DNA from: Escherichia phage REP4
Reading direction: 5' to 3' (one strand)
Length of the DNA: 64,000 nt
Sequence record: OQ174503.1
Positions 1 through 64,000 of this stretch are shown here, one piece after another. Below the pieces are notes generated by a model that saw only the letters and a program-made list of their open reading frames with translations, was not told where the DNA came from and searched no databases. The position numbers and the translations under genes were made by a program. Positions within the stretch are counted from its first letter, which is position 1. Every line of letters starts with the position of its first letter.

Positions 1-383
1 GGTTGAGAAGCTAAGGCAGCAGTAAATTGAACCGGGGTTCCAATTACTCCAGCAGCAGGACTATCAGGAGTTACTGCCAAGGTAGTTGTCTGCGTCTTTT
101 TATTAACCGTTAATGATACTTCATTAGAAGTAACTTCCTTTGCATCATAATCTGTCGCGGTTACTTGAGCTACACACTTAATTGTTTTAACTCCGCTTGT
201 GGAAGGAGTGTAATTGAATGTAGCAGAAGTTGCTTCGCCTACAGGAGAACCGTCAACGTACCATTGATACGTAGCAGTTGCGCCAGATGGCTGTGAAGCT
301 AAGGCAGCAGTAAATTGAACCGGGGTTCCAATTACTCCAGCAGCAGGACTATCAGGAGTTACTGCTAAGGTAGTTGTTTGTGT
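1..383. repeat. Near-identical ~95-nt direct repeat (1-95 vs 289-383) inside hoc, one Ig-domain period apart
   Basis: Direct comparison of the two segments: only a few mismatches over ~95 nt, spacing 288 nt. Confidence 0.8.
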
Positions 384-663
384 CTTATTTTGAACTGTGA
401 TAGTTGTAGTAGCTTCTGCTGTTTCAGCATCAGTATCTGGAACTGGGTTTGTTGCAACTACTTTAATAGTTTTTTGACCGGCAGGTCCTTTTAGTACATA
501 ACTAAAAGTTGCTTCAGTTCCATCTTGTGGAACATCGTCTACAGTCCAAGCATATGTAATAGGTCCATCTCCAGTTTGACCACTGGGTGTAGCAGTAAAC
601 TGCTGAGTCTGATCTATAACTCCAGTAGGTGTTTTAGGAGTTATATCAACTGTAAAAGCCATA
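1..663 (-). CDS. hoc: Hoc outer capsid decoration protein, N-terminal ~221 codons (rest of gene lies before window start)
   Basis: Manual minus-strand translation from ATG at 663: MAFTVDITPKTPTGVIDQTQQFTATPSGQTGDGPITYAWTVDD...; frame stays open to position 1; tandem Ig-like domain repeats with ~96-codon period. Confidence 0.85.
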
Positions 664-11759: not shown

Positions 11760-11790
11760 TTTGTGTTCCTCATGTTATGTAAGTAAAATT

Positions 11791-11820
11791 ATTATAACAC
11801 CACACGAGGGACTTGTAAAC
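11791..11820 (-). promoter_or_regulatory. T4-type early promoter (GTTTACA -35, TATAAT -10) for the 96-aa ORF
   Basis: rc on plus strand: ATTATA ...18 nt... TGTAAAC; the -35 overlaps the stop of the upstream alt paralog. Confidence 0.5.
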
Positions 11821-15997: not shown

Positions 15998-16005
15998 TAT
16001 TTATA
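15998..16005 (-). promoter_or_regulatory. Late promoter (TATAAATA on minus strand) upstream of alt
   Basis: Plus-strand TATTTATA about 25 nt upstream of alt ATG. Confidence 0.5.
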
Positions 16006-16026
16006 AAATTAAAGGCCCGAAGGCCT

Positions 16027-16215
16027 TTAATAATCTAATGGTAAGAGAGTACGATATATTTCAAACTTCGGACCTTTTTCATAGGCATCAAATGTTTCTG
16101 TAAATTTATTATAAGCATATGCATCTACAAATTCGAGAATGACTTGTGATACAGAAGTAGAAACATCTCCACCTTCTTTTTGAGCCACGACAATTGTTTC
16201 TAAGTAAGCTTTCAT
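16027..16215 (-). CDS. Hypothetical small protein (62 aa) between ligase and alt
   Basis: Track ORF; stop followed by GAAG-type hairpin; 4-nt overlap with gene 30. Confidence 0.5.
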   Translation of the reverse strand: MKAYLETIVVAQKEGGDVSTSVSQVILEFVDAYAYNKFTETFDAYEKGPKFEIYRTLLPLDY

Positions 16216-19939: not shown

Positions 19940-19980
19940 AGTATTTTCCTCAGTAAGGGGCCGAAGCCCCTCATTTTATT

Positions 19981-20346
19981 TTAAATATCAAATTCGTTAA
20001 GAACTACATCAAAGATCGCTTCAAGATGCTCAGGTTTAGCTCTGTTACTCAGAATATGACGAATCCAAGTTTTAACCAGAAGCTTACGATTGACGCCATT
20101 CCAGCAAGGATGAGTACCTAAATCGCGTTGACGGAAATCATCATCTAATGCGATTTTAAAAGAAGAACCTTCTTTCGTGATTGAAACCGTGATGCCATTT
20201 TCAAATCGCATATAAACGTAGTTAGGAGTCATATACTGTTCAATTTCGCATACTGATCCATTTTGATGTTTCCAAAGGCAGATAGTATCAATAGAACCTG
20301 CAATACCATTAGAAACATATTTACGTTCAAAGTTGATGTAGTTCAT
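19981..20346 (-). CDS. Hypothetical protein (121 aa)
   Basis: Track ORF; followed by hairpin ggggccgaagcccc. Confidence 0.6.
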   Translation of the reverse strand: MNYINFERKYVSNGIAGSIDTICLWKHQNGSVCEIEQYMTPNYVYMRFENGITVSITKEGSSFKIALDDDFRQRDLGTHPCWNGVNRKLLVKTWIRHILSNRAKPEHLEAIFDVVLNEFDI

Positions 20347-27464: not shown

Positions 27465-27492
27465 AAAGTCCTCATGTTATGTCAGTAAGACT

Positions 27493-27522
27493 ACTGTAAC
27501 ACAACACGAGGGACTTGTAAAC
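27493..27522 (-). promoter_or_regulatory. Early promoter (GTTTACA -35, TACAGT -10) upstream of alc; homologous to the element at 11791-11820
   Basis: Shares the module ...ACACGAGGGACTTGTAAAC and ...CCTCATGTTATGT.AGTAA with 11761-11820. Confidence 0.45.
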
Positions 27523-29140: not shown

Positions 29141-30310
29141 TTAAAAATATTTTTTAAAACTCATCATAACTTTATCATCAACATCATTATCAATCTGTGC
29201 TACAAGGTAAGATGACAGTTCTACTTCTTGTGGCGCGGATTGAACATTATCAGAATTAAGATATTCACGAATCCAAGGATACGGGTGTTTAACCGGAGCA
29301 TCGGTAATTGGGCATGGAAGACCGCACTGTTTCATACGAGATACAGTTAAGTAATCAATAAAGCTCCACATGCTATTTGTATTTAATCCAGGAACATCGC
29401 CATCTTTAAATAAATGAACTGCCCAGTCTTTTTCTTGACGGTTAACTTCCATGAAAATATCAACTGCTTCTTGTTCACACTCTTGGGTGATTTTAACCCA
29501 TTCATCACCATCAGTGCCAAGTTGAAGTTGACGAATAATATATTGGGTGCCTTTAAGGTGAAGCTGCTCATCACGTGCAATGAACTTCATAATCTTGGCA
29601 TTACCTTCCATGATTTCCATGTTCTTATGGAAGTTAAAGGTACATGCGAAAGATACATAAAAACGAATAGCTTCCAATGCGTTGATTACGTGCAGGCAGA
29701 GGCAAAGAGATTTCATTAGTGCTCGTTTAGTACATTCAACAACTTTGCCTAACTCTTCTTTACGAAATCCTTCTGATAAAATTCCTTCATAATCTTCAAC
29801 CGCATTCTGATATTCACGAGTCTTAACTAGAACATCATCATAATAGCGACCGATAGATTCAGCACGTTTCATGATAGCTTCATCTAGTACAATCTCATCA
29901 AATACCTTCGATGGATCAGTATAAAGATTTCGCATGATATGAGTATATGAACGACTGTGAATAGTTTCACTAAAAGTCCATGTAGCAACCCATGTATCAA
30001 GACTTGGGTCTGAAATTAATGACATAAGTACAGCAGACGGTGCACGACCCTGAATGCTATCTAGAAGTGATTGATACTTCAAGTTATTAGTAAAAATATC
30101 TTGCTGATACTGAGGAAGCTTGTTAAATTGTGCAGCATCCATCATCAAGTTTACTTCTTCAGGACGCCAGAAAAATGATAATTGCTTTTCGGTTAAATCT
30201 TCAAAAACTTTATGGCGTTGAATATCATAACGCGCAATACCAAGACCTGAACCGAAGAACATAGGTTCTTTTAAAACATCAACTGGATTTGTATTAAAAA
30301 CTGTGCTCAT
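29141..30310 (-). CDS. nrdB: Ribonucleotide reductase small subunit NrdB (uninterrupted)
   Basis: 389 aa continuous ORF with di-iron/tyrosyl radical motifs; no intron. Confidence 0.95.
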   Translation of the reverse strand: MSTVFNTNPVDVLKEPMFFGSGLGIARYDIQRHKVFEDLTEKQLSFFWRPEEVNLMMDAAQFNKLPQYQQDIFTNNLKYQSLLDSIQGRAPSAVLMSLISDPSLDTWVATWTFSETIHSRSYTHIMRNLYTDPSKVFDEIVLDEAIMKRAESIGRYYDDVLVKTREYQNAVEDYEGILSEGFRKEELGKVVECTKRALMKSLCLCLHVINALEAIRFYVSFACTFNFHKNMEIMEGNAKIMKFIARDEQLHLKGTQYIIRQLQLGTDGDEWVKITQECEQEAVDIFMEVNRQEKDWAVHLFKDGDVPGLNTNSMWSFIDYLTVSRMKQCGLPCPITDAPVKHPYPWIREYLNSDNVQSAPQEVELSSYLVAQIDNDVDDKVMMSFKKYF

Positions 30311-33183: not shown

Positions 33184-34043
33184 TTACACCGCCATCTTTC
33201 CTTTCAAGACACCATGGGACTGATAATCTTTGAGAACGAAATCTCGTGCTGTCATATATTCAGTTAACCAATACATTTGAGTTTCAGTATCGCATTGACT
33301 GAATCCATTAGGCCAATTAATACTAAGTTTGCATAGATCCATAGGAGTTCTATTTAATATCTCTTTGCATTGCTCAATATGGTTAGAATAAATGTGTGTA
33401 TTACCACCCGAGAATACCAAATCGCCCGGAACTAGTTCACACATGTCAGCAACAATATGTAAAAGAGCAGCATAACTCGCGATGTTAAATGGAAGACCGA
33501 GGAAAACATCTACCGAACGTTGATACCATTGTAGGTCAAGGTATCCGTTACGCACATTAAACTGATAGAACATATGACAAGGTGGTAATGCCATCTGCTT
33601 GAGTTCAGCTGGATTCCATGCCGACACAATTTGACGTCTATCATTGGGAAATGTTTTAATACGATTAACAACTTCTACAATTTGATCTACACCACCAAAA
33701 TCACGCCACTGTTTTCCGTAAATTGGACCAAGTTCACCGCTATGATAACCTAAGTCTTTGGCCTGGTTTTCGTAGTTTTCATCCCAAATTGTTTTTCCTG
33801 CAATTAAAGATCCATGAGTACGTTGACGTAAATCATTTACGTTAGTACTTCCTGATAAGAACCACAATAACTCAGAAATACATGCATTCCAGGCGAGCTT
33901 CTTAGTCGTTACTGCAGGAAAACCTTTAGTTAAATCCCAGCGTAATTTAGTACCGAACAAAGCAATTGTTCCTGTGCCTGTTCGGTCATCGGTTTCATAG
34001 CCATTTTCCAGAATATCTTTAATTAAAAATTGGTATTGTTTCA

Positions 34044-36149: not shown

Positions 36150-36377
36150 TTACTGCTCAATAAATCCTGTGTAAAATTCTACATCTTCAGCATCCATACC
36201 GTCACAATATTCATTAACCATAAATTGTTTAAGACGATTTAAAGGACCTTCAATAACAACTGAAACATTGCAATTAGGATCATTTAGTGCGCTTATGATA
36301 CGGAGTTCAGGATAACGATTACGAATAATTTCTTCAATATATTCAAAATCAACAACATCAATATCAATTTTAGCCAT
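36150..36377 (-). CDS. Hypothetical acidic protein (75 aa from ATG 36377)
   Basis: [26 protein letters not shown]...; the track ORF is extended upstream through the promoter repeat. Confidence 0.55.
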
Positions 36378-36420
36378 GTTATTTTCCTCTTTAATCATCA
36401 GCAGTATTGCCGATAGTTGT

Positions 36421-36450
36421 ATAGTACCATAAAGCTTTATGCTTGTAAAC
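36421..36450 (-). promoter_or_regulatory. Early promoter cassette (GTTTACA - 17 nt - TACTAT), copy 1 of 3
   Basis: rc on plus strand ATAGTA ...17 nt... TGTAAAC, A/T-rich UP-like tract; near-identical copies at 53596-53625 and 57643-57672. Confidence 0.5.
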
Positions 36451-36482
36451 CGTTTTGTGAAAAAAATTTTTGAAATAAAAAA

Positions 36483-36501
36483 GGGGACCTCTAGGGTCCC
36501 C
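36483..36501 (-). terminator. Gene 32 intrinsic terminator hairpin ggggaccTCTAgggtcccc
   Basis: 8-bp stem 22 nt after gene 32 stop, followed on minus strand by U-run. Confidence 0.55.
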
Positions 36502-37432: not shown

Positions 37433-37500
37433 TTTTATTTCCTTTTTAATTTAATTAACAGTTGGTGCTATGACGATGTATGACCTCATAGCTGGTCAGT
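37433..37500 (-). promoter_or_regulatory. Gene 32 translational operator: 5' leader pseudoknot plus AU-rich unstructured region
   Basis: Minus-strand leader contains UGACC...GCUAUGA...GGUCA...UCAUAGC (two interleaved stems) followed by UUAAAUUAAAAAGGAAAUAAAA-AUG. Confidence 0.6.
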
Positions 37501-37515
37501 GAGATAATTATAATC

Positions 37516-37523
37516 TATTTATA
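37516..37523 (-). promoter_or_regulatory. Late promoter TATAAATA (minus strand) upstream of gene 32
   Basis: Plus-strand TATTTATA between gene 59 stop and the gene 32 leader. Confidence 0.45.
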
Positions 37524-37531
37524 ATAAGCAA

Positions 37532-39797: not shown

Positions 39798-42700
39798 ATG
39801 GCCGAGATTAAAAGAAAGTTCAGAGCAGAAGACGGTCTGGACGCAGGTGGCGATAAAATAATCAACGTAGCTTTAGCTGATCGTACCGTAGGAACTGACG
39901 GTGTTAACGTTGATTACCTAATTCAAGAAAACACAGTTCAGCAATATGATCCAACTCGTGGATATTTAAAAGATTTTGTAATCATTTATGATAACCGCTT
40001 TTGGGCTGCTATAAATGATATTCCAAAACCGGCAGGAACTTTTAACAGTGGACGCTGGAGAGCATTGCGTACTGATGCTAACTGGATCACAGTCTCATCT
40101 GGTTCATATCAATTAAAATCCGGTGAAGCTATTTCGGTTAACACTGCAGCTGGTAATGATATTACGTTTACTTTACCATCTACTCCAATTGACGGTGATA
40201 CTATCGTTCTCCAAGACATTGGAGGAAAACCTGGGGTTAACCAAGTTTTAATTGTAGCTCCAGTGCAAAGTATTGTAAACTTCAGAGGTGAACAAGTACG
40301 TTCAGTACTAATGACTCATCCAAAGTCACAGTTAGTTTTAATTTTTAGTAATCGCCTGTGGCAAATGTATGTGGCTGATTATAGTAGAGAAGCTGTAGTT
40401 GTAACACCAGCGAATACTTATCAAGCGCAATCCAACGATTTTATCGTACGTAGATTTACTTCTGCTGCACCGATTAATATTAAACTTCCGAGATTTGCTA
40501 ATCACGGCGATATTATTAATTTCGTCGATTTGGATAAATTAAATCCACTTTATCATACAATTGTTACTACATACGATGAAACTACATCAGTACAAGAAGA
40601 TGGAACTCATTCTATTGAAGGCCGTACATCTATTGACGGTTTCTTGATGTATGATGATAATGAAAAATTGTGGAGATTGTTTGACGGAGACAACAAAGCA
40701 CGTTTACGTATCATAACGACTAATTCAAACATTCGTCCAAATGAAGAAGTTATGGTATTTGGTGCGAATAATGGAATAACTCAAACAATTGAACTCCAGC
40801 TTCCAACTAATATTTCTGTTGGTGATACTGTTAAAATTTCCATGAATTACATGAGAAAAGGACAAACAGTTAAAATCAAAGCTGCCGGTGAAGATAAAAT
40901 TGCTTCTTCAGTTCAATTGCTGCAGTTCCCAAAACGTTCAGAATATCCGCCTGAAGCTGAATGGGTAACTGTTCAAGAATTAGTTTTTAACGGTGAAACT
41001 AATTATGTTCCAGTTTTACAACTTGCTTATATAGAAGATTCTGACGGAAAATACTGGGTTGTACAGCAAAACGTTCCAACTGTAGAAAGAGTTGATTCTT
41101 TAAATGATTCTACTAGAGCAAGATTAGGCGTAATTGCTTTAGCTACACAAGCTCAAGCTAATGCTGATTTAGAAAATTCTCCACAAAAAGAATTAGCAAT
41201 TACTCCAGAAACATTAGCTAACCGTACTGCTACAGAAACTCGTAGAGGTATCGCAAGAATAGCAACTACTGCTCAAGTGAATCAGAACACTACATTCTCT
41301 TTTGCTGACGATATTATCATCACTCCTAAAAAGCTGAATGAAAGAACTGCTACAGAAACTCGTAGAGGTGTTGCTGAAATTGCTACGCAGCAGGAAACTA
41401 ATGCAGGTACTGATGATACTACAATCATCACTCCTAAAAAGCTTCAAGCTCGACAAGGTTCTGAGTCATTATCTGGTATTGTAACTTTTGTATCTACTAC
41501 AGGAGCTACTCCAGCTTCTAGTCGTGAATTAAATGGTACAAACGTTTATAATAAAAACACTAATAATTTAGTCGTTTCGCCTAAAGCTTTGGATCAGTAT
41601 AAAGCTACTCCAACGCAACAAGGTGCAGTAATTTTAGCAGTTGAAAGTGAAGTAATTGCTGGACAGAGTCAAGAAGGATGGGCAAATGCTGTTGTAACGC
41701 CAGAAACGTTACATAAAAAGACATCAACTGATGCAAGAATTGGTTTAATTGAAATTGCTACACAAAGTGAAGTTAATACAGGAACTGATTATACTCGTGC
41801 AGTCACTCCTAAAACTTTAAATGACCGTATAGCAACTGAAAGTTTAAGTGGTATAGCTGAAATTGCTACACAAGTTGAATTCGACGCAGGCGTCGACGAT
41901 ACTCGTATCTCTACACCATTAAAAATTAAAACCAGATTTAATAGTACTGATCGTACTTCTGTTGTTGCTCTATCTGGATTAGTTGAATCAGGAACTCTCT
42001 GGGACCATTATACCCTTAATATTCTTGAAGCAAATGAGACACAGCGTGGTACACTTCGTGTAGCTACACAAGTTGAAGCTGCTGCAGGAACATTGGATAA
42101 TGTTTTAATAACTCCTAAAAAGCTTTTAGGTACTAAATCTACTGAAGCACAGGAAGGTGTTATTAAAGTTGCGACTCAGTCTGAAACTGTGGCTGGAACG
42201 TCAGCAAATACTGCTGTATCTCCAAAAAATTTAAAATGGATTGTGCAGAGTGAACCTACTTGGGCAGCTACTACTGCAATAAGAGGCTTTGTTAAAACTT
42301 CATCTGGTTCAATTACATTCGTTGGTAATGATACAGTTGGTTCTACACAGAGCTTAGAGCTATACGAGAAAAATAGCTATGCAGTATCACCATATGAATT
42401 AAACCGTGTATTAGCAAATTATTTGCCGTTAAAAGCAAAAGCTGCTGACGCGAATTTATTAGATGGTCTAGATTCATCTCAGTTCATTCGTAGGGATATT
42501 GCACAGACGGTTAATGGTTCACTAACCTTAACCCAACAAACGAATCTGAATGCCCCTCTTGTATCATCTAGTACTGCTACGTTTGGTGGCTCGTTGGCTG
42601 CTAACTCCACATTTACTATACGTAACACAGGAACTCCGACCCGCATCGTTTTCGAAAAAGGTCCTGCATCCGGTGCAAACCCGGTTCAGTCAATGAGCAT

Positions 42701-52918: not shown

Positions 52919-53554
52919 TCACAGTTCAGATGCTACGGTGATTACTGCTTCAATGTTTTCTGCCGAGCGTTTAATGTCAAGATACACATTACCATTTTTA
53001 GCGATTTTACATGACATTCCGATATCAGTAAATTTCTGAATATGATGTTCCATCATTTTGTATCCAAAAATTCGCATATTTCCATTGTTGTTAATTTCAA
53101 AATTACGAATTCCGTGAGTGCGTTTTTCTAAAATAGCGAGATAGTTACTACGATAAGTTTCAACTTTTTTAAGAACAAATCCATTTTCATCTAAAAGTTT
53201 TAGCATGAGGTCTTTATCTTCTTCCATATCGGAAGTAATCTCACGAGCTTTACGAGTTGCTCGTTTTTTCAGTAGTTCAGGAGCATTTTCCTGCGCATAT
53301 AAAGTTGCTGCATTTGAAATAATATCCTGAGCTTCACCAGTAATGATTAATCCATCGCCAGATTTCTCCACCAGGCCTTTTTTAATCAATACACCAATAT
53401 TACTATTAACTACTGCATTACCTAAATCTGGATGCACCTCACGAACTTCTGCAGCTGTAATGAAATCTTTCTTAGCAATGGTAATTAAAATCGCAGCAGT
53501 TTTTTCATTCAGAACATCGTTAGAAGCTTTGATGATGTAAGTTACTTTAGACAT
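52919..53554 (-). CDS. motA: MotA middle-transcription activator
   Basis: 211 aa, MSKVTYIIKASNDVLNEKTAAILITIAKKDFITAAEVREVHPDLG... Confidence 0.95.
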   Translation of the reverse strand: MSKVTYIIKASNDVLNEKTAAILITIAKKDFITAAEVREVHPDLGNAVVNSNIGVLIKKGLVEKSGDGLIITGEAQDIISNAATLYAQENAPELLKKRATRKAREITSDMEEDKDLMLKLLDENGFVLKKVETYRSNYLAILEKRTHGIRNFEINNNGNMRIFGYKMMEHHIQKFTDIGMSCKIAKNGNVYLDIKRSAENIEAVITVASEL

Positions 53555-53595
53555 TTTCTAATCTCCGTAATTCTGTATCAGTAGTTGATAGTTGT

Positions 53596-53625
53596 ATAGT
53601 ACCACAGTATGCTTTGGTTGTAAAC
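53596..53625 (-). promoter_or_regulatory. Early promoter cassette for motA, copy 2 of 3
   Basis: rc ATAGTA ...17 nt... TGTAAAC; near-identical to 36421-36450 and 57643-57672. Confidence 0.5.
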
Positions 53626-53655
53626 CGTTTTGTGAAAAAATTTTGAAATAAAAAA

Positions 53656-53675
53656 GGGAGAGCCTCGGCTCTCCC
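53656..53675 (-). terminator. Intrinsic terminator hairpin gggagagcCTCGgctctccc
   Basis: 8-bp stem, followed on minus strand by a U-run. Confidence 0.55.
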
Positions 53676-53680
53676 TAAAA

Positions 53681-56889: not shown

Positions 56890-57132
56890 TTTCTGTTCCT
56901 CCGTAGTTGATAGAGTAATAATACCACAGAGGAACAGTCTTGTAAACAACTTTTTTAAAAATATTCGTAATAAATGTGAATACCAACTACTACTGCTGAA
57001 ACTTGCGCAACCCACCATGCACAAGCAATAAGTACAGAATTCAAAATTTTCATAATAACCTCATCACAAAAGTAAATGTTAAACAAATTAATGGAATACT
57101 AATTAACCAAACAAAACACCACCATAATGAAC

Positions 57133-57405
57133 TCATAGTTCAATCTCAGCGATTTTCATTTCATTACTATTAATAGCCGCTTTAAGACTATCTGAAAGAA
57201 TTACATTCCAGTGGTCATTCATATGACCATTAACTAAGCGTGTAATTTCTTCGGGAGTTGAAAAATAAGGCGTATCAGACTCCCAATGCGATAGTCCCAA
57301 GCGAGTATAAATCATACCTTCATCATCGCTAGAATATTCAACTGACACAAACTCATCAGTTATTTTATGTTTAGCGTAATAAAATTTAAATTTCATTTTA
57401 CTCAA
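57133..57405 (-). CDS. Hypothetical protein (90 aa)
   Basis: Track ORF. Confidence 0.55.
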   Translation of the reverse strand: MSKMKFKFYYAKHKITDEFVSVEYSSDDEGMIYTRLGLSHWESDTPYFSTPEEITRLVNGHMNDHWNVILSDSLKAAINSNEMKIAEIEL

Positions 57406-57608
57406 TAATCCGCTAAAAGATCGACGATTGCATCACGAAGACACTTATTCGCAATACGTTTAAGAGCAATTTCAGTTTCTGGAGCATTTTGAATAATCAT
57501 CGAATTCAATTCAACCTCAGCAAACTGAAGTTCTTTAACTAATTCAGCTTTATATTTTCCTTGCCCTTTCTTAGCTTTTGCTCGTTTTAATTCAGCCGTA
57601 GTAAACAT
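57402..57608 (-). CDS. Hypothetical basic protein (68 aa from ATG 57608)
   Basis: MFTTAELKRAKAKKGQGKYKAELVKELQF...; GGAG SD; track ORF extended through promoter repeat. Confidence 0.55.
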   Translation of the reverse strand: MFTTAELKRAKAKKGQGKYKAELVKELQFAEVELNSMIIQNAPETEIALKRIANKCLRDAIVDLLADY

Positions 57609-57642
57609 TTTATTCTCCAAATCCGTATCAGTTGATAGTTGT

Positions 57643-57672
57643 ATAGTACCACAGTCCTTGTGGTATGTAAAC
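57643..57672 (-). promoter_or_regulatory. Early promoter cassette, copy 3 of 3
   Basis: rc ATAGTA ...17 nt... TGTAAAC immediately after denB stop. Confidence 0.5.
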
Positions 57673-57688
57673 CGTTTTGTGAAAATTT

Positions 57689-58246
57689 TTAAATGGAAAG
57701 ATACCATCCGCTGTAGTTGCTTTTTCTTACAACCTTACGAAGGTCTTCTCTATCACCGATGAACTTCGGAGTGTACTGGATGACACCTGGGTGAATTTCT
57801 TTAGTGTTGAATATAATTATACAGTCAGCGACCTGATGATTCAGAATGGGCCCTAGATTTATTCCAGAACCGTATGGATACTCTCCGCTGCATCCTGTTG
57901 TTACAGAAATCCAACGTGAGTCAGTTTGATGTGTCTTAACTTCTACACGAAGCCCGCAGTATCTTGGATGCGCCAATACATCCCATGCGTATGTATACGG
58001 GTCATTAACATCCTCTTGGCCTTTGTTAACATACCCGCTTAACCAATCTGCTACAAAAAACTCTGCATACACAGCGATACGGCATCTTTCGATGACTTCT
58101 GCTTTATCCTGATTAGGATTTTGCTTTAAAGAGTATCTTGCTGTATCAGCAATTTTGACCTTCATTTCACTAGTCAAGTCATTGTTCGACATGGTAAATG
58201 CCGGAATCTGAAATAGTCTCTGTAAACCCGGATTCGTTTTCTGCAT
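57689..58246 (-). CDS. denB: Endonuclease IV
   Basis: 185 aa ORF at the T4 denB position and length; identity by recall. Confidence 0.75.
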   Translation of the reverse strand: MQKTNPGLQRLFQIPAFTMSNNDLTSEMKVKIADTARYSLKQNPNQDKAEVIERCRIAVYAEFFVADWLSGYVNKGQEDVNDPYTYAWDVLAHPRYCGLRVEVKTHQTDSRWISVTTGCSGEYPYGSGINLGPILNHQVADCIIIFNTKEIHPGVIQYTPKFIGDREDLRKVVRKSNYSGWYLSI

Positions 58247-58332
58247 TAAACTTTCCTTTTACGTCGGAATCACTGATATTCATACAATAAATCATAACTT
58301 CCCTTAAAACAAAAGGGCCGAAGCCCCTTATT

Positions 58333-58527
58333 TTATTTGAATTGTGCAATTCTTTTTTCTAAACAATCTGCGTAAGATTTCATTGAGATGAACTGTGAAA
58401 GCAGTAATTCTTGCTCAACTGCATTAACCGTTGAAAACTTTTCACTTTCTAAAAATTTGCTCAGCGCATTAATTTTGAGCATTAATTGATCGTATTCTTC
58501 TTTTACTCGTGCTTGATAACCTAACAT
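58333..58527 (-). CDS. Hypothetical protein (64 aa)
   Basis: Track ORF flanked by GAAG-loop hairpins. Confidence 0.55.
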   Translation of the reverse strand: MLGYQARVKEEYDQLMLKINALSKFLESEKFSTVNAVEQELLLSQFISMKSYADCLEKRIAQFK

Positions 58528-58555
58528 AATTTTCCTTAGTTAAGGGCCGAAGCCC

Positions 58556-59494
58556 TTATTTGAATTGTTCAGTAACGTCTTCAACTACTTCGTATTGGCA
58601 AGTACGCATTTTAGCATCGTTGTAATCAATCGGAATTGATACTACATCGCGAGGATGCACTTTAACTTTTACAACTCGACTGGTTGAACTACCAAAGTGA
58701 CGAATATAAGATTTAGAACACACATGCAGACCACGAGAACAAGTTTGTGTATCATCGTCATTCACACGAGTACGTGGCATTTTAACTACTTTACCAGGAC
58801 TGTTATCAAAAGTATTTGAATGGCAGTCAAAGTAATTACTGCGAACTACTTTCCAAGCATAGAAGTAACCGTCTTCTGTAATTTCAATATCGTTTGCTAC
58901 CAAGAAATCAAAGAGTCGAGATACCGCTTTTTGGCTTGGGTTTTCCAGCAGATTTTCCAAGAACGGAAAATAAAATTCAAAGTTTTCGCCTTTTTCCATC
59001 GAATCGAGAATACGATCAACTAAACCAGACCGCAATTCAATGTTTTGATAGAACAAGCTTCCACCTTCAATTCGAACATCACCGGAAATATATTTTTCAA
59101 CAGCGCGACGAACGTTAATTTTTTGTGCTGCTTCTTCCAATTTATCTGCAACAAGCAGGTTAAGAATTTCCTGGAAGTTTGAATGAGTATTAGGAGTTGC
59201 GTTATAAGTTACGCCGTCAACAGTAATTGAAATGAATTTTTTAGATGCATTCCAAATAATGTCAGATTTAGCAACTGGAGCAATAGCTACATCACTCTTA
59301 ACTTCAACTGTAATGTCACCGCTAATAGTAACTTTGGAGCGTTCAGCTTCTTCAGCATTTTTCAAAACACGACGGATGGTGTCAACCGATACATCTTTCC
59401 AATAAGCCAATTCCTGTTGGGTATAATTACCGCTTGAATACAGTTTAACAATTTCAGCTTGTTCGTTTTTGGTCAGGCATTTAATATTGTACAT
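58556..59494 (-). CDS. rIIB: rIIB membrane-associated protein
   Basis: 312 aa, MYNIKCLTKNEQAEIVKLYSSGNYTQQELA... Confidence 0.95.
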   Translation of the reverse strand: MYNIKCLTKNEQAEIVKLYSSGNYTQQELAYWKDVSVDTIRRVLKNAEEAERSKVTISGDITVEVKSDVAIAPVAKSDIIWNASKKFISITVDGVTYNATPNTHSNFQEILNLLVADKLEEAAQKINVRRAVEKYISGDVRIEGGSLFYQNIELRSGLVDRILDSMEKGENFEFYFPFLENLLENPSQKAVSRLFDFLVANDIEITEDGYFYAWKVVRSNYFDCHSNTFDNSPGKVVKMPRTRVNDDDTQTCSRGLHVCSKSYIRHFGSSTSRVVKVKVHPRDVVSIPIDYNDAKMRTCQYEVVEDVTEQFK

Positions 59495-63772: not shown

Positions 63773-63838
63773 TTATCCTCGTTTGGTTTCGGGAATATTA
63801 TACTCCGGTAATCATAAAGCTAAAGGCCCGAAGGCCTT

Positions 63839-64000
63839 TTATTTAAAACGGATAGTCGAATCCTTGAAGAAAAGACCAGAACATACTGTTCCTTCTACTT
63901 TCTGCCCGGTAGGTCCAATAGCACGAAATCCAGTATGTTGGAAATCATTTTCAGAGCAACCGAACCAATTATATCCAGTGATTTCAATATTAGTAAAACC
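63839..64000 (-). CDS. C-terminal 53 codons of a gene whose start lies beyond the window end
   Basis: Manual minus-strand translation ...GFTNIEITGYNWFGCSENDFQHTGFRAIGPTGQKVEGTVCSGLFFKDSTIRFK*; preceded by hairpin ggcccgaaggcc. Confidence 0.45.
   Translation of the reverse strand, partial: GFTNIEITGYNWFGCSENDFQHTGFRAIGPTGQKVEGTVCSGLFFKDSTIRFK

Follow-up and report, generated by a model that had tools for sequence, protein, structure and literature searches.

Three separate places in a 64,000-nucleotide stretch of DNA from Escherichia phage REP4 (OQ174503.1; hereafter the window) carry almost the same sequence, which raises two questions: what these repeats do, and why copies at different loci should resemble one another so closely. 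A preliminary description of the window had located them at 36406-36501, 53581-53675 and 57631-57690, and had interpreted them as terminator-plus-early-promoter cassettes that might also serve as substrates for recombination. All three segments are present, they read 5' to 3' on the minus strand, and each of them contains two exactly conserved blocks; they are referred to here as copies A, B and C. The window is about 98% identical to Tequatrovirus genomes, e.g. N2, IME339 and ime09, and its sequence identifies the source as a Tequatrovirus, i.e. a T4-like phage.

Composition of the repeats

Blocks 1 and 2 (Table 1) are separated by a 14-nt segment which, in the three-copy alignment, has nothing common to copies A, B and C. 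The core of block 1, CACAAAACGGTTTACA, has 3 exact matches in the window; with up to 3 mismatches the number rises to 5, against 0.85 expected, and 5 matches were reached in 0/100 shuffles. Block 2 has 3 matches against 0.04 expected, a number likewise reached in 0/100 shuffles. The A/B/C repeats were also returned by a repeat finder as the top-ranked direct-repeat family of the window (D1). One distance given previously has to be corrected, as GTTTACA and TGGTACTAT are separated by 14 nt and not by 17 nt, the latter being the spacing between the hexamers TTTACA and TACTAT. The genes said to lie downstream were all found, namely a 75-aa ORF after gene 32, motA (211 aa) and a 68-aa ORF after denB.

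Table 1. Repeat blocks, promoter features and adjoining ORFs of the window, with the spacer classes found at the frd.3 locus
Feature	Position	Strand	Description
Block 1	36463-36444 (A), 53638-53619 (B), 57685-57666 (C)	minus	TTTTCACAAAACGGTTTACA; exact in 3/3 copies
Block 2	36429-36412 (A), 53604-53587 (B), 57651-57634 (C)	minus	TGGTACTATACAACTATC; exact in 3/3 copies
Copy A, terminator hairpin	36483..36501	minus	GGGGACCCTAGAGGTCCCC; downstream of gene 32; T run 36473-36482; from terminator scan
Copy A, UP-element-like region	36451..36482	minus	A/T tracts and CACAAAACG (TTTTTTATTTCAAAAATTTTTTTCACAAAACG); from sequence reading and three-copy alignment
Copy A, core promoter	36421..36450	minus	GTTTAC 36450-36445; -35 TTTACA 36449-36444; TGG 36429-36427; -10 TACTAT 36426-36421
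Copy A, predicted +1	36414	minus	A, 7 nt after the -10
Copy A, discriminator and leader	36375..36420	minus	ACAACTATCGGCAATACTGC...; SD AGAGGA; ATG of frd.3 ortholog 36377-36375
frd.3 ortholog	36150-36377	minus	75-aa ORF; PHROG 1764, function unknown
Copy B, terminator hairpin	53655..53676	minus	AGGGAGAGCCGAGGCTCTCCCT; downstream of the motA.1/gene 52 unit; T run as far as 53646
Copy B, promoter	53596..53645	minus	UP-like tract, block 1, spacer S2 (aaccaaagcatactg), TGG, -10 TACTAT 53601-53596
Copy B, predicted +1	53589	minus	A, 7 nt after the -10
Copy B, leader	53552..53595	minus	ATCAACTACTGATACAGAATTAC; SD GGAG; motA ATG 53554-53552
Copy C, promoter	57643..57691	minus	Block 1 57685-57666; TGG; -10 TACTAT 57648-57643; no upstream terminator
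Copy C, predicted +1	57636	minus	A, 7 nt after the -10
Copy C, leader	57606..57642	minus	ATCAACTGATACGGATTTGGAGAATAAAATG; ATG of 68-aa ORF 57608-57606
Variable ORF cassette behind copy C	57133..57608	minus	68-aa ORF 57402-57608; 87-aa ORF 57133-57396; PHROGs 4535 and 2390, function unknown
Partial family member	56918..56947	minus	GTTTAC, spacer S5b (aagactgttcctctg), then TGGTATTATTACTCTATCAACTA
frd.3 spacer S1			aagcataaagcttta; in T4 and the window; otherwise the nrdC.10 spacer
frd.3 spacer S2			aaccaaagcatactg; in 2 phages; otherwise the motA spacer
frd.3 spacer S3			ataccacaaggactg and one variant; in 2 phages; otherwise the denB-downstream spacer
frd.3 spacer S4			atccttgtccttcca and variants; in 5 phages; otherwise the e.8 spacer

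Besides the three copies, the window holds a partial member of the family (Table 1). The orthologs of this site in two other phages (rows MKKIV and MKKII) have block 2 in its exact form.

No known RNA family was revealed when the entire window was scanned against Rfam at gathering thresholds. Two further candidate identities were rejected. On inspection, the AAGCAT/ATGCTT motifs in the spacers of copies A and B cannot be taken for MotA boxes, since for a middle promoter they are misplaced with respect to the -10, and their offsets differ between the copies. A transposon or MITE-like element was discarded because terminal inverted repeats and target duplications are missing and the hairpins of the copies are unlike.

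Match to the T4 early promoter class

The early promoters of T4 are reportedly treated as the Pe class by Wilkens and Rueger, and in 2003 by Miller et al. They were reviewed by Hinton in 2010 (PMC2988021), and are defined by GTTTAC at -36 to -31, an A-rich tract at -40 to -44, an UP element, a TGn motif within an extended -10 of the TGTGGTA type, and a -10 of the form TAnnnT (PMC2988021, PMC1524935). GTTTAC, together with the -35-like TTTACA, is exact in copies A, B and C; CACAAAACG puts AAAA at -42 to -39, with T6 and A4-5 tracts farther upstream; and the extended -10, placed at the 17-nt hexamer spacing, reads TGTGGTACTAT in B and C and TATGGTACTAT in A, fitting in all three the early motif TGTG(A/G)TA(C/T)(A/T)AT. 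Each copy is oriented toward its adjoining downstream gene (the frd.3 ortholog, motA and the 68-aa ORF, all on the minus strand), and all GTTTAC-type sites of the window (14/14) lie on the early-gene strand.

The same blocks are found in T4 upstream of frd.3 (GTTTAC at 146875), of motA (163673) and of the first ORF after denB (167086). By their sequence, copies A, B and C carry every feature of the T4 early promoter class, and nothing essential distinguishes them from the Pe promoters of T4; this phage has small substitutions and other ORF content downstream of copy C. The earlier reading of the sites as early promoters is borne out by this agreement with the published architecture and by the occupation of the same three loci in T4. 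Within the Pe class, the A/B/C family constitutes an unusually uniform subfamily.

Transcripts from two of these loci are documented in T4, where motA mRNA was detected 1 min after infection (PMC9697503) and the NAD-capped RNAs of highest abundance include frd.3; NAD-capped 5' ends generally correspond to primary start sites and begin with A (bioRxiv 10.1101/2024.04.04.588121).

How the repeats would act was deduced from their agreement with what has been published on the architecture of T4 early promoters. The A/T-rich UP-like tract would be open to the alpha C-terminal domains of RNA polymerase, and GTTTACA would serve as the -35 element, followed by the 14-nt segment, which should tolerate any sequence. 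The extended -10, TGgTACTAT, would be followed by the conserved start region ACAACTATC, with the predicted +1 at its A, and by a leader that closes with a Shine-Dalgarno (SD) sequence and ATG. Given the UP-like tract, the -35, the extended -10 and the start region, unmodified host polymerase should be able to start transcription at these sites straight after infection.

The promoters of copies A and B directly adjoin the intrinsic terminator that closes the preceding unit (gene 32 for A, motA.1/gene 52 for B). At this junction the T run of the terminator leads on into the UP-like tract, TTTTTTATTTCAAAA(A)TTTTTT(T)CACAAAACG, so that one module of about 95 bp would close one transcript and open the next. 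The T run may thereby play a double role in both copies, as part of the terminator and of the UP-like tract; the UP-like region of copy A probably reuses it in this way.

Terminators, spacers and leaders of the three copies

The Omega interposon makes use of the T4 gene 32 terminator. The hairpin of copy A (RNA fold -14.3 kcal/mol, z -2.46) and its T run are the same in T4 at the orthologous place, GGGGACCCTAGAGGTCCCC included, and no difference was found between T4 and the window in this intrinsic terminator, which is kept after gene 32 in 5/6 T4-like genomes (PMC1524935). The hairpin of copy B has 9 pairs in the terminator scan, with an RNA fold of -17.6 kcal/mol (z -3.99). The segment upstream of copy C folded into no terminator-like structure (-4.5 kcal/mol, equalled in 40/200 shuffles), and the A/T tract of this copy includes the stop codon of denB, TAA (57691-57689). 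The description of the repeats as a terminator followed by an early promoter consequently holds for A and B, where a G+C hairpin precedes a T run, but not for C, which is a promoter without a terminator.

The spacers differ as well. That of copy A, where the promoter scan scored 9/12 with the TG present, belongs to class S1 (aagcataaagcttta), contained within the 17-nt hexamer spacing. A small hairpin, CCACA...TGTGG, had been ascribed to the spacers of two copies, but copy C alone has it, its class S3 spacer forming TACCACA-AGGAC-TGTGGTA (57665-57647; -5.6 kcal/mol, with 0/200 shuffles as stable). The stems in the two remaining spacers are within chance: the palindrome CATAAAG/CTTTATG of copy A is no better than in 24/200 shuffles, and the weak stem of copy B was matched in 20/200. 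A terminator role of the copy C spacer hairpin is not supported, because the hairpin has no T run.

In the leader of copy C, GGAGAATAAAA exactly fits the consensus of strong RegB cleavage sites, GGAGRAYARAA (PMC3014915). This leader module recurs at the T4 nrdC.10 and imm.1 promoters.

What follows copy C is variable, and three states of the downstream ORFs were found: both the 68-aa and the 87-aa ORF (the window), the 87-aa ORF only (several relatives) or neither (T4). The alignment between the window and T4 is interrupted at 57165/57606, and T4 retains an 8-codon remnant (MKIAEIEL) of the end of the 87-aa ORF. The T4 deletion junction is marked by an AAATG microhomology at the start codons, outside the promoter blocks.

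At the motA locus of some phages, a 75-aa ORF lies between copy B and motA, with the family promoter on one side and a second early promoter on the other. In such cases both promoters are followed by the same 23-nt repeat, CTATCAAATAAATGAACTGAAAC.

Relation to PeSL cassettes

Composite terminator/promoter cassettes of T4-type phages have been described as PeSLs (promoter-early stem-loop) by Arbiol et al. in 2010; they were shown to act as promoters and terminators and were proposed to mediate modular shuffling (PMC2839356). Comeau et al. (2014) extended the concept to T4/PST, giving TTTACW-N17-TAYWAT as the consensus together with an example from the ndd region, by denB (PMC4122927).

Copies A, B and C all agree with the T4/PST consensus. 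Each of them has a sigma-70-like promoter that is preceded by A/T-rich sequence and closes with a Shine-Dalgarno sequence and ATG; a stable stem-loop is present as well, either as an upstream hairpin with a T run (A and B) or as a spacer hairpin (C). The genome contains several conserved copies, three in the window compared with seven exact copies of block 2 in T4, and each copy is associated with indels or replacements, i.e. three ORF states at C, the 75-aa ORF cassette at B and spacer replacement at A (see below).

Compared with the PeSLs of these papers, the likeness extends to the composite unit with an upstream stop codon in an A/T-rich tract, a stem-loop, the -35 and -10, SD and ATG; to the position of the stem-loop, upstream (A, B) or flanked by -35 and -10 (C); and to the gain and loss of ORFs between close relatives, including the ndd/denB region shown in Fig. 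6A of Comeau (PMC4122927). Judged by these features, copies A, B and C are PeSL-type cassettes of the kind already described for T4-type phages, and the promoter-ORF-promoter layout at motA is the arrangement that would be expected of a PeSL cassette. Copy C is located in the variable ndd/denB region, while A and B flank the core genes 32 and motA, frd.3 and motA.1 being small accessory ORFs. In this bordering of core genes A and B differ from the PeSLs, which preferentially occupy ORFan-rich hyperplastic regions.

A family more uniform than the consensus demands

To establish the size of the family in T4, the whole genome, joined from four pieces, was searched for block 2. The search returned seven exact copies and one with a single mismatch, the sites lying upstream of ndd.6, motA, frd.3, e.8, nrdC.10, nrdC.9, imm.1 and mobD.5. 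Some of these promoters are mosaics of others: that of nrdC.10 shares its upstream part and spacer with the frd.3 promoter but its leader with the denB-downstream promoter, and that of imm.1 joins the spacer of the promoter at 166807 to the leader of the promoter at 167086. Scans of viral and metagenome contigs gave up to eight pattern matches per large contig.

Many positions of the family correspond to the general T4 early consensus, e.g. TTTcAcAAA..GTTTACA and CTATCAAcTA, and a large part of both blocks could be held fixed by the contacts that the polymerase makes with the UP element, -35, TGn, -10 and discriminator (PMC2988021). This would suit pure functional convergence, in which each copy was selected independently to one optimal promoter with no exchange between loci. 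We consider such an origin extremely improbable. A profile was built from the 29 other T4 early promoters (family members left out), and the family proved to be far more uniform than the consensus demands. At the family-specific positions the 29 promoters use other bases, with an information content of only 0.2-0.8 bits; under their profile three independent draws would be identical with a probability of about 1e-10 per block, and the closest non-family T4 promoter agrees at 17/20 positions of block 1 and 15/18 of block 2.

Convergence does not predict the mosaic combinations of upstream part, spacer and leader either. Moreover, although base-specific reading does not extend to the spacer, its sequence is identical (15/15) at unrelated loci and variable between phages at one locus. 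As the identity of the blocks goes beyond the needs of the consensus, a function in common is not sufficient as an explanation; the copies would be alike beyond what a promoter needs because they are members of a multi-copy family.

Exchange of spacers between promoters

The spacers were surveyed by pattern scans of viral and metagenome contigs which, together with T4 and the window, yielded 81 sites (74 unique), sorted by upstream context, spacer, leader and downstream protein. Both blocks are invariant in 74/74 unique sites; for block 2, which the search pattern prescribed, this invariance in the collected set is partly circular. Most loci have a single spacer class, i.e. S1 at nrdC.10, S5b at nrdC.9 and S3 downstream of denB. 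At the motA locus S2 was found in 8/8 unique sites directly upstream of motA and in 3/3 with the inserted 75-aa ORF.

The frd.3 locus presents a different picture, with a constant gene 32 terminator upstream, a constant leader downstream and four unrelated spacers between them (Table 1). All four combinations occur in isolates as exact 55/55 matches: ime09 (S1), PinkRuby (S2), EPIMRB01 (S3) and T2 (S4). A BLAST summary suggested S4 as the commonest frd.3 allele among about 500 genomes, the counts being approximate because some alignments cross a mismatched spacer at 87.7% identity. Some phages had the base at -37 swapped along with the spacer, others had not; the tract ends are therefore unlike and several events are needed.

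The frd.3 polymorphism is most simply read as ectopic gene conversion over short patches, or as template switching, with crossovers that would fall inside the invariant blocks; its direction and its mechanism, whether gene conversion, copy-choice or reciprocal crossover, are deduced from end states alone. The uninterrupted identity of the common blocks amounts to only 18-24 nt, which is short for T4 homologous recombination, and the exchange is therefore probably rare.

Based on these observations, we suggest with considerable confidence that the repeats are sigma-70-dependent early promoters of the T4 type, belonging to a multi-copy PeSL family whose members exchange sequence between loci. 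This trade would proceed by homologous recombination or by template switching, and the crossovers would fall within the two invariant blocks. Such exchange would homogenise the blocks, shift spacers between loci and let ORF cassettes enter or leave at the leader.

The tight clustering of crossovers at the block ends might also be expected of a dedicated mobile element or site-specific system, in which a recombinase or DNA-binding protein recognises the hairpins or the blocks. Arbiol et al. raised this for the PeSL stem-loops (GGGG...CCCC), and they reported mini-circles (PMC2839356). For the repeats described here it seems very unlikely: the cassettes have no flanking terminal inverted repeats or target-site duplications, the hairpin sequences are unlike between copies and C has no terminator hairpin, and the tract ends vary. 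Furthermore, T4 recombination-dependent replication can use short homologies, as stated in the same source (PMC2839356).

The invariance of both blocks across the 74 unique sites, with block 2 fixed by the search pattern, could also be explained by a regulatory site specific to this subclass of promoters, i.e. if CACAAAACG upstream of the -35 and ACAACTATC around +1 formed an operator for a phage or host factor. T4 early promoters do possess extra consensus regions of unknown role, only some of them are stimulated by Alt-modified polymerase (PMC2988021), and the mechanism of early shut-off has been called 'not completely understood' (PMC3014915). However, mutational analysis of P8.1 identified no single position behind the Alt effect (PMC2988021), the block 2 part of the argument shares the circularity of the collected set, and homogenisation by exchange already accounts for the invariance. 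We regard an operator as unlikely.

The factor in question might serve Alt-dependent stimulation or the shut-off of early promoters, and its existence would be compatible with promoters that exchange sequence.

The suggestion that the repeats are recombination substrates was upheld as far as short-patch exchange and the gain and loss of ORF cassettes are concerned, but not for deletion or inversion between copies A, B and C. Inversion is not expected, because all three are direct repeats. On the T4 gene map, a deletion between A and B would take out genes 32, 34-38 and motA, and the loss of this region would be lethal. A deletion between B and C would give a chimera of the copy C spacer (S3) and the motA leader, and a search of 50,697 phage records yielded none. 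Its best full-length matches were ordinary motA loci at 94% identity, and about 530 matching phage genomes contained no B-C deletion junction of the kind that had been suggested.

The spacer polymorphism at frd.3 is directly observed; any targeted or adaptive cause of it is a matter of speculation. It is unlikely that the T-even early promoters are a concerted-evolution family in which the asymmetry between frd.3 and motA reflects a targeted process or selection on spacers or blocks. If one speculates about a targeted process, a candidate is the homing endonuclease SegG, whose double-strand breaks near gene 32 might be repaired from ectopic promoter copies. If selection were involved, spacer alleles or family-specific blocks under selection would tune the strength or the shut-off of early promoters.

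Some features of the exchange may be mentioned separately. The claimed patch comprises the spacer of about 15 nt, sometimes with neighbouring bases, and the loci are up to about 100 kb apart. The frd.3 promoter is a recurrent recipient, with four spacer alleles among sequenced Tequatroviruses, and the motA spacer never varies.

In the available portions of the PeSL papers (PMC2839356, PMC4122927) no swap of a spacer alone at a constant locus was found, and the spacer-only exchange at frd.3 can be regarded as a modest, incremental extension of the known PeSL model. The morons of lambdoid phages, which are promoter-gene-terminator insertions, are likewise small ORFs that bring or use their own promoter and terminator; in the window, as distinct from these, the conserved promoter blocks themselves would be the exchange points (compare PMC1524935 and PMC2839356).

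Significance

The three repeats are real, they were correctly interpreted in the preliminary description, and they are already known. The result mainly confirms textbook T4 biology and opens no new question. It can be used in the annotation of T4-like genomes, for promoter and terminator calls and for expected indel hot spots, and in phage engineering, where the blocks are likely sites of unwanted recombination.

Strong, near-identical early promoters let a T4-type phage seize host RNA polymerase within seconds, and the fusion of terminator and promoter insulates neighbouring transcription units. At the same time, the invariant promoter blocks provide portable homology, and therefore spacers and small ORF cassettes may move between loci with regulation left intact. 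In this respect, the comparative result serves as a population-level illustration of the published PeSL idea.

ORF cassette and leader downstream of copy C

The 68-aa and 87-aa ORFs directly downstream of copy C (the early promoter following denB) account for a 441-bp segment that is present in the window and absent from T4, where the corresponding junction lies at 167017-167025. The site of this T4 junction is an AAATG microhomology at the start codons, and an 8-codon remnant ORF (MKIAEIEL), overlapping the ndd.6 start, is left there. In several environmental relatives the 87-aa ORF occurs alone, without the 68-aa ORF. The copy C leader contains GGAGAATAAAA, which matches exactly the published strong RegB cleavage-site consensus GGAGRAYARAA (PMC3014915) and overlaps the Shine-Dalgarno (SD) sequence; the same leader module is found at other promoters of the family, i.e. 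those sharing the -35-side block and the TGG/-10/start block.

Other repeats, and segments absent relative to T4

Going by the T4 coordinates, the sequence that the window lacks in nrdB is that gene's intron with I-TevIII, the one it lacks in td is the intron with I-TevI, and the segment missing from the interval bounded by genes 32 and 59 is segG. The stretch that holds the diverged repeats aligns with gene 34 of T4, the gene for the proximal tail fibre. The recurrent G+C hairpins, of the form AAGGGGCCGAAGCCCCTT or AAAGGCCCGAAGGCCTTT and A/T-rich on both sides, look like bidirectional terminators placed at several intergenic sites.

Features of the window
Feature	Position	Strand	Details
Promoters, -10 bracketed by inverted repeats	20412, 24197, 35725	(-)	early; position of GTTTAC
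Early promoter pair	11767-11820, 27469-27522	(-)	near-identical, 89% over 54 nt
Promoter, variant -10 block	56918-56947	(-)	spacer aagactgttcctctg, -10 block TGGTATTATTACTCTATC
RegB consensus match	57606-57618	(-)	copy C leader
68-aa and 87-aa ORF cassette	57133-57608	(-)	441 bp absent from T4
Direct repeat, 110 nt	1-110, 289-398		92% identical; very start of window
Diverged repeats	41199-41869		start-to-start spacing 108-120 nt
nrdB	29643-29646		about 600 bp absent vs T4
td	33495-33496		about 1 kb absent vs T4
Between genes 32 and 59	37495-37531		about 620 bp absent vs T4
Repeated G+C hairpins	15998-16031, 19955-19998, 58312-58355, 58542-58566, 63809-63847		intergenic

Relationships among early promoters

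Three early promoters with inverted repeats around the -10 (e.g. GGTACAGG...CCTGTACC, GGTAGAG...CTCTACC and AGGGTA...TACCCT) match one subclass of PeSLs, the promoter-early stem-loop cassettes of T4-type phages (PMC2839356, PMC4122927), namely those with a stem-loop overlapping the -10.

The near-identical promoter pair, whose T4 counterparts are sites 123093 and 136336, shares GTTTACaagtccctcgtgt(g/t)gtgttata(a/g)t..., with the similarity taking in the leader and SD. The pair suggests a further homogenised promoter subfamily. At the promoter with the variant -10 block, the orthologous site in two other phages carries the exact family block TGGTACTATACAACTATC, and therefore it appears that the -10 block, too, has been exchanged between loci.
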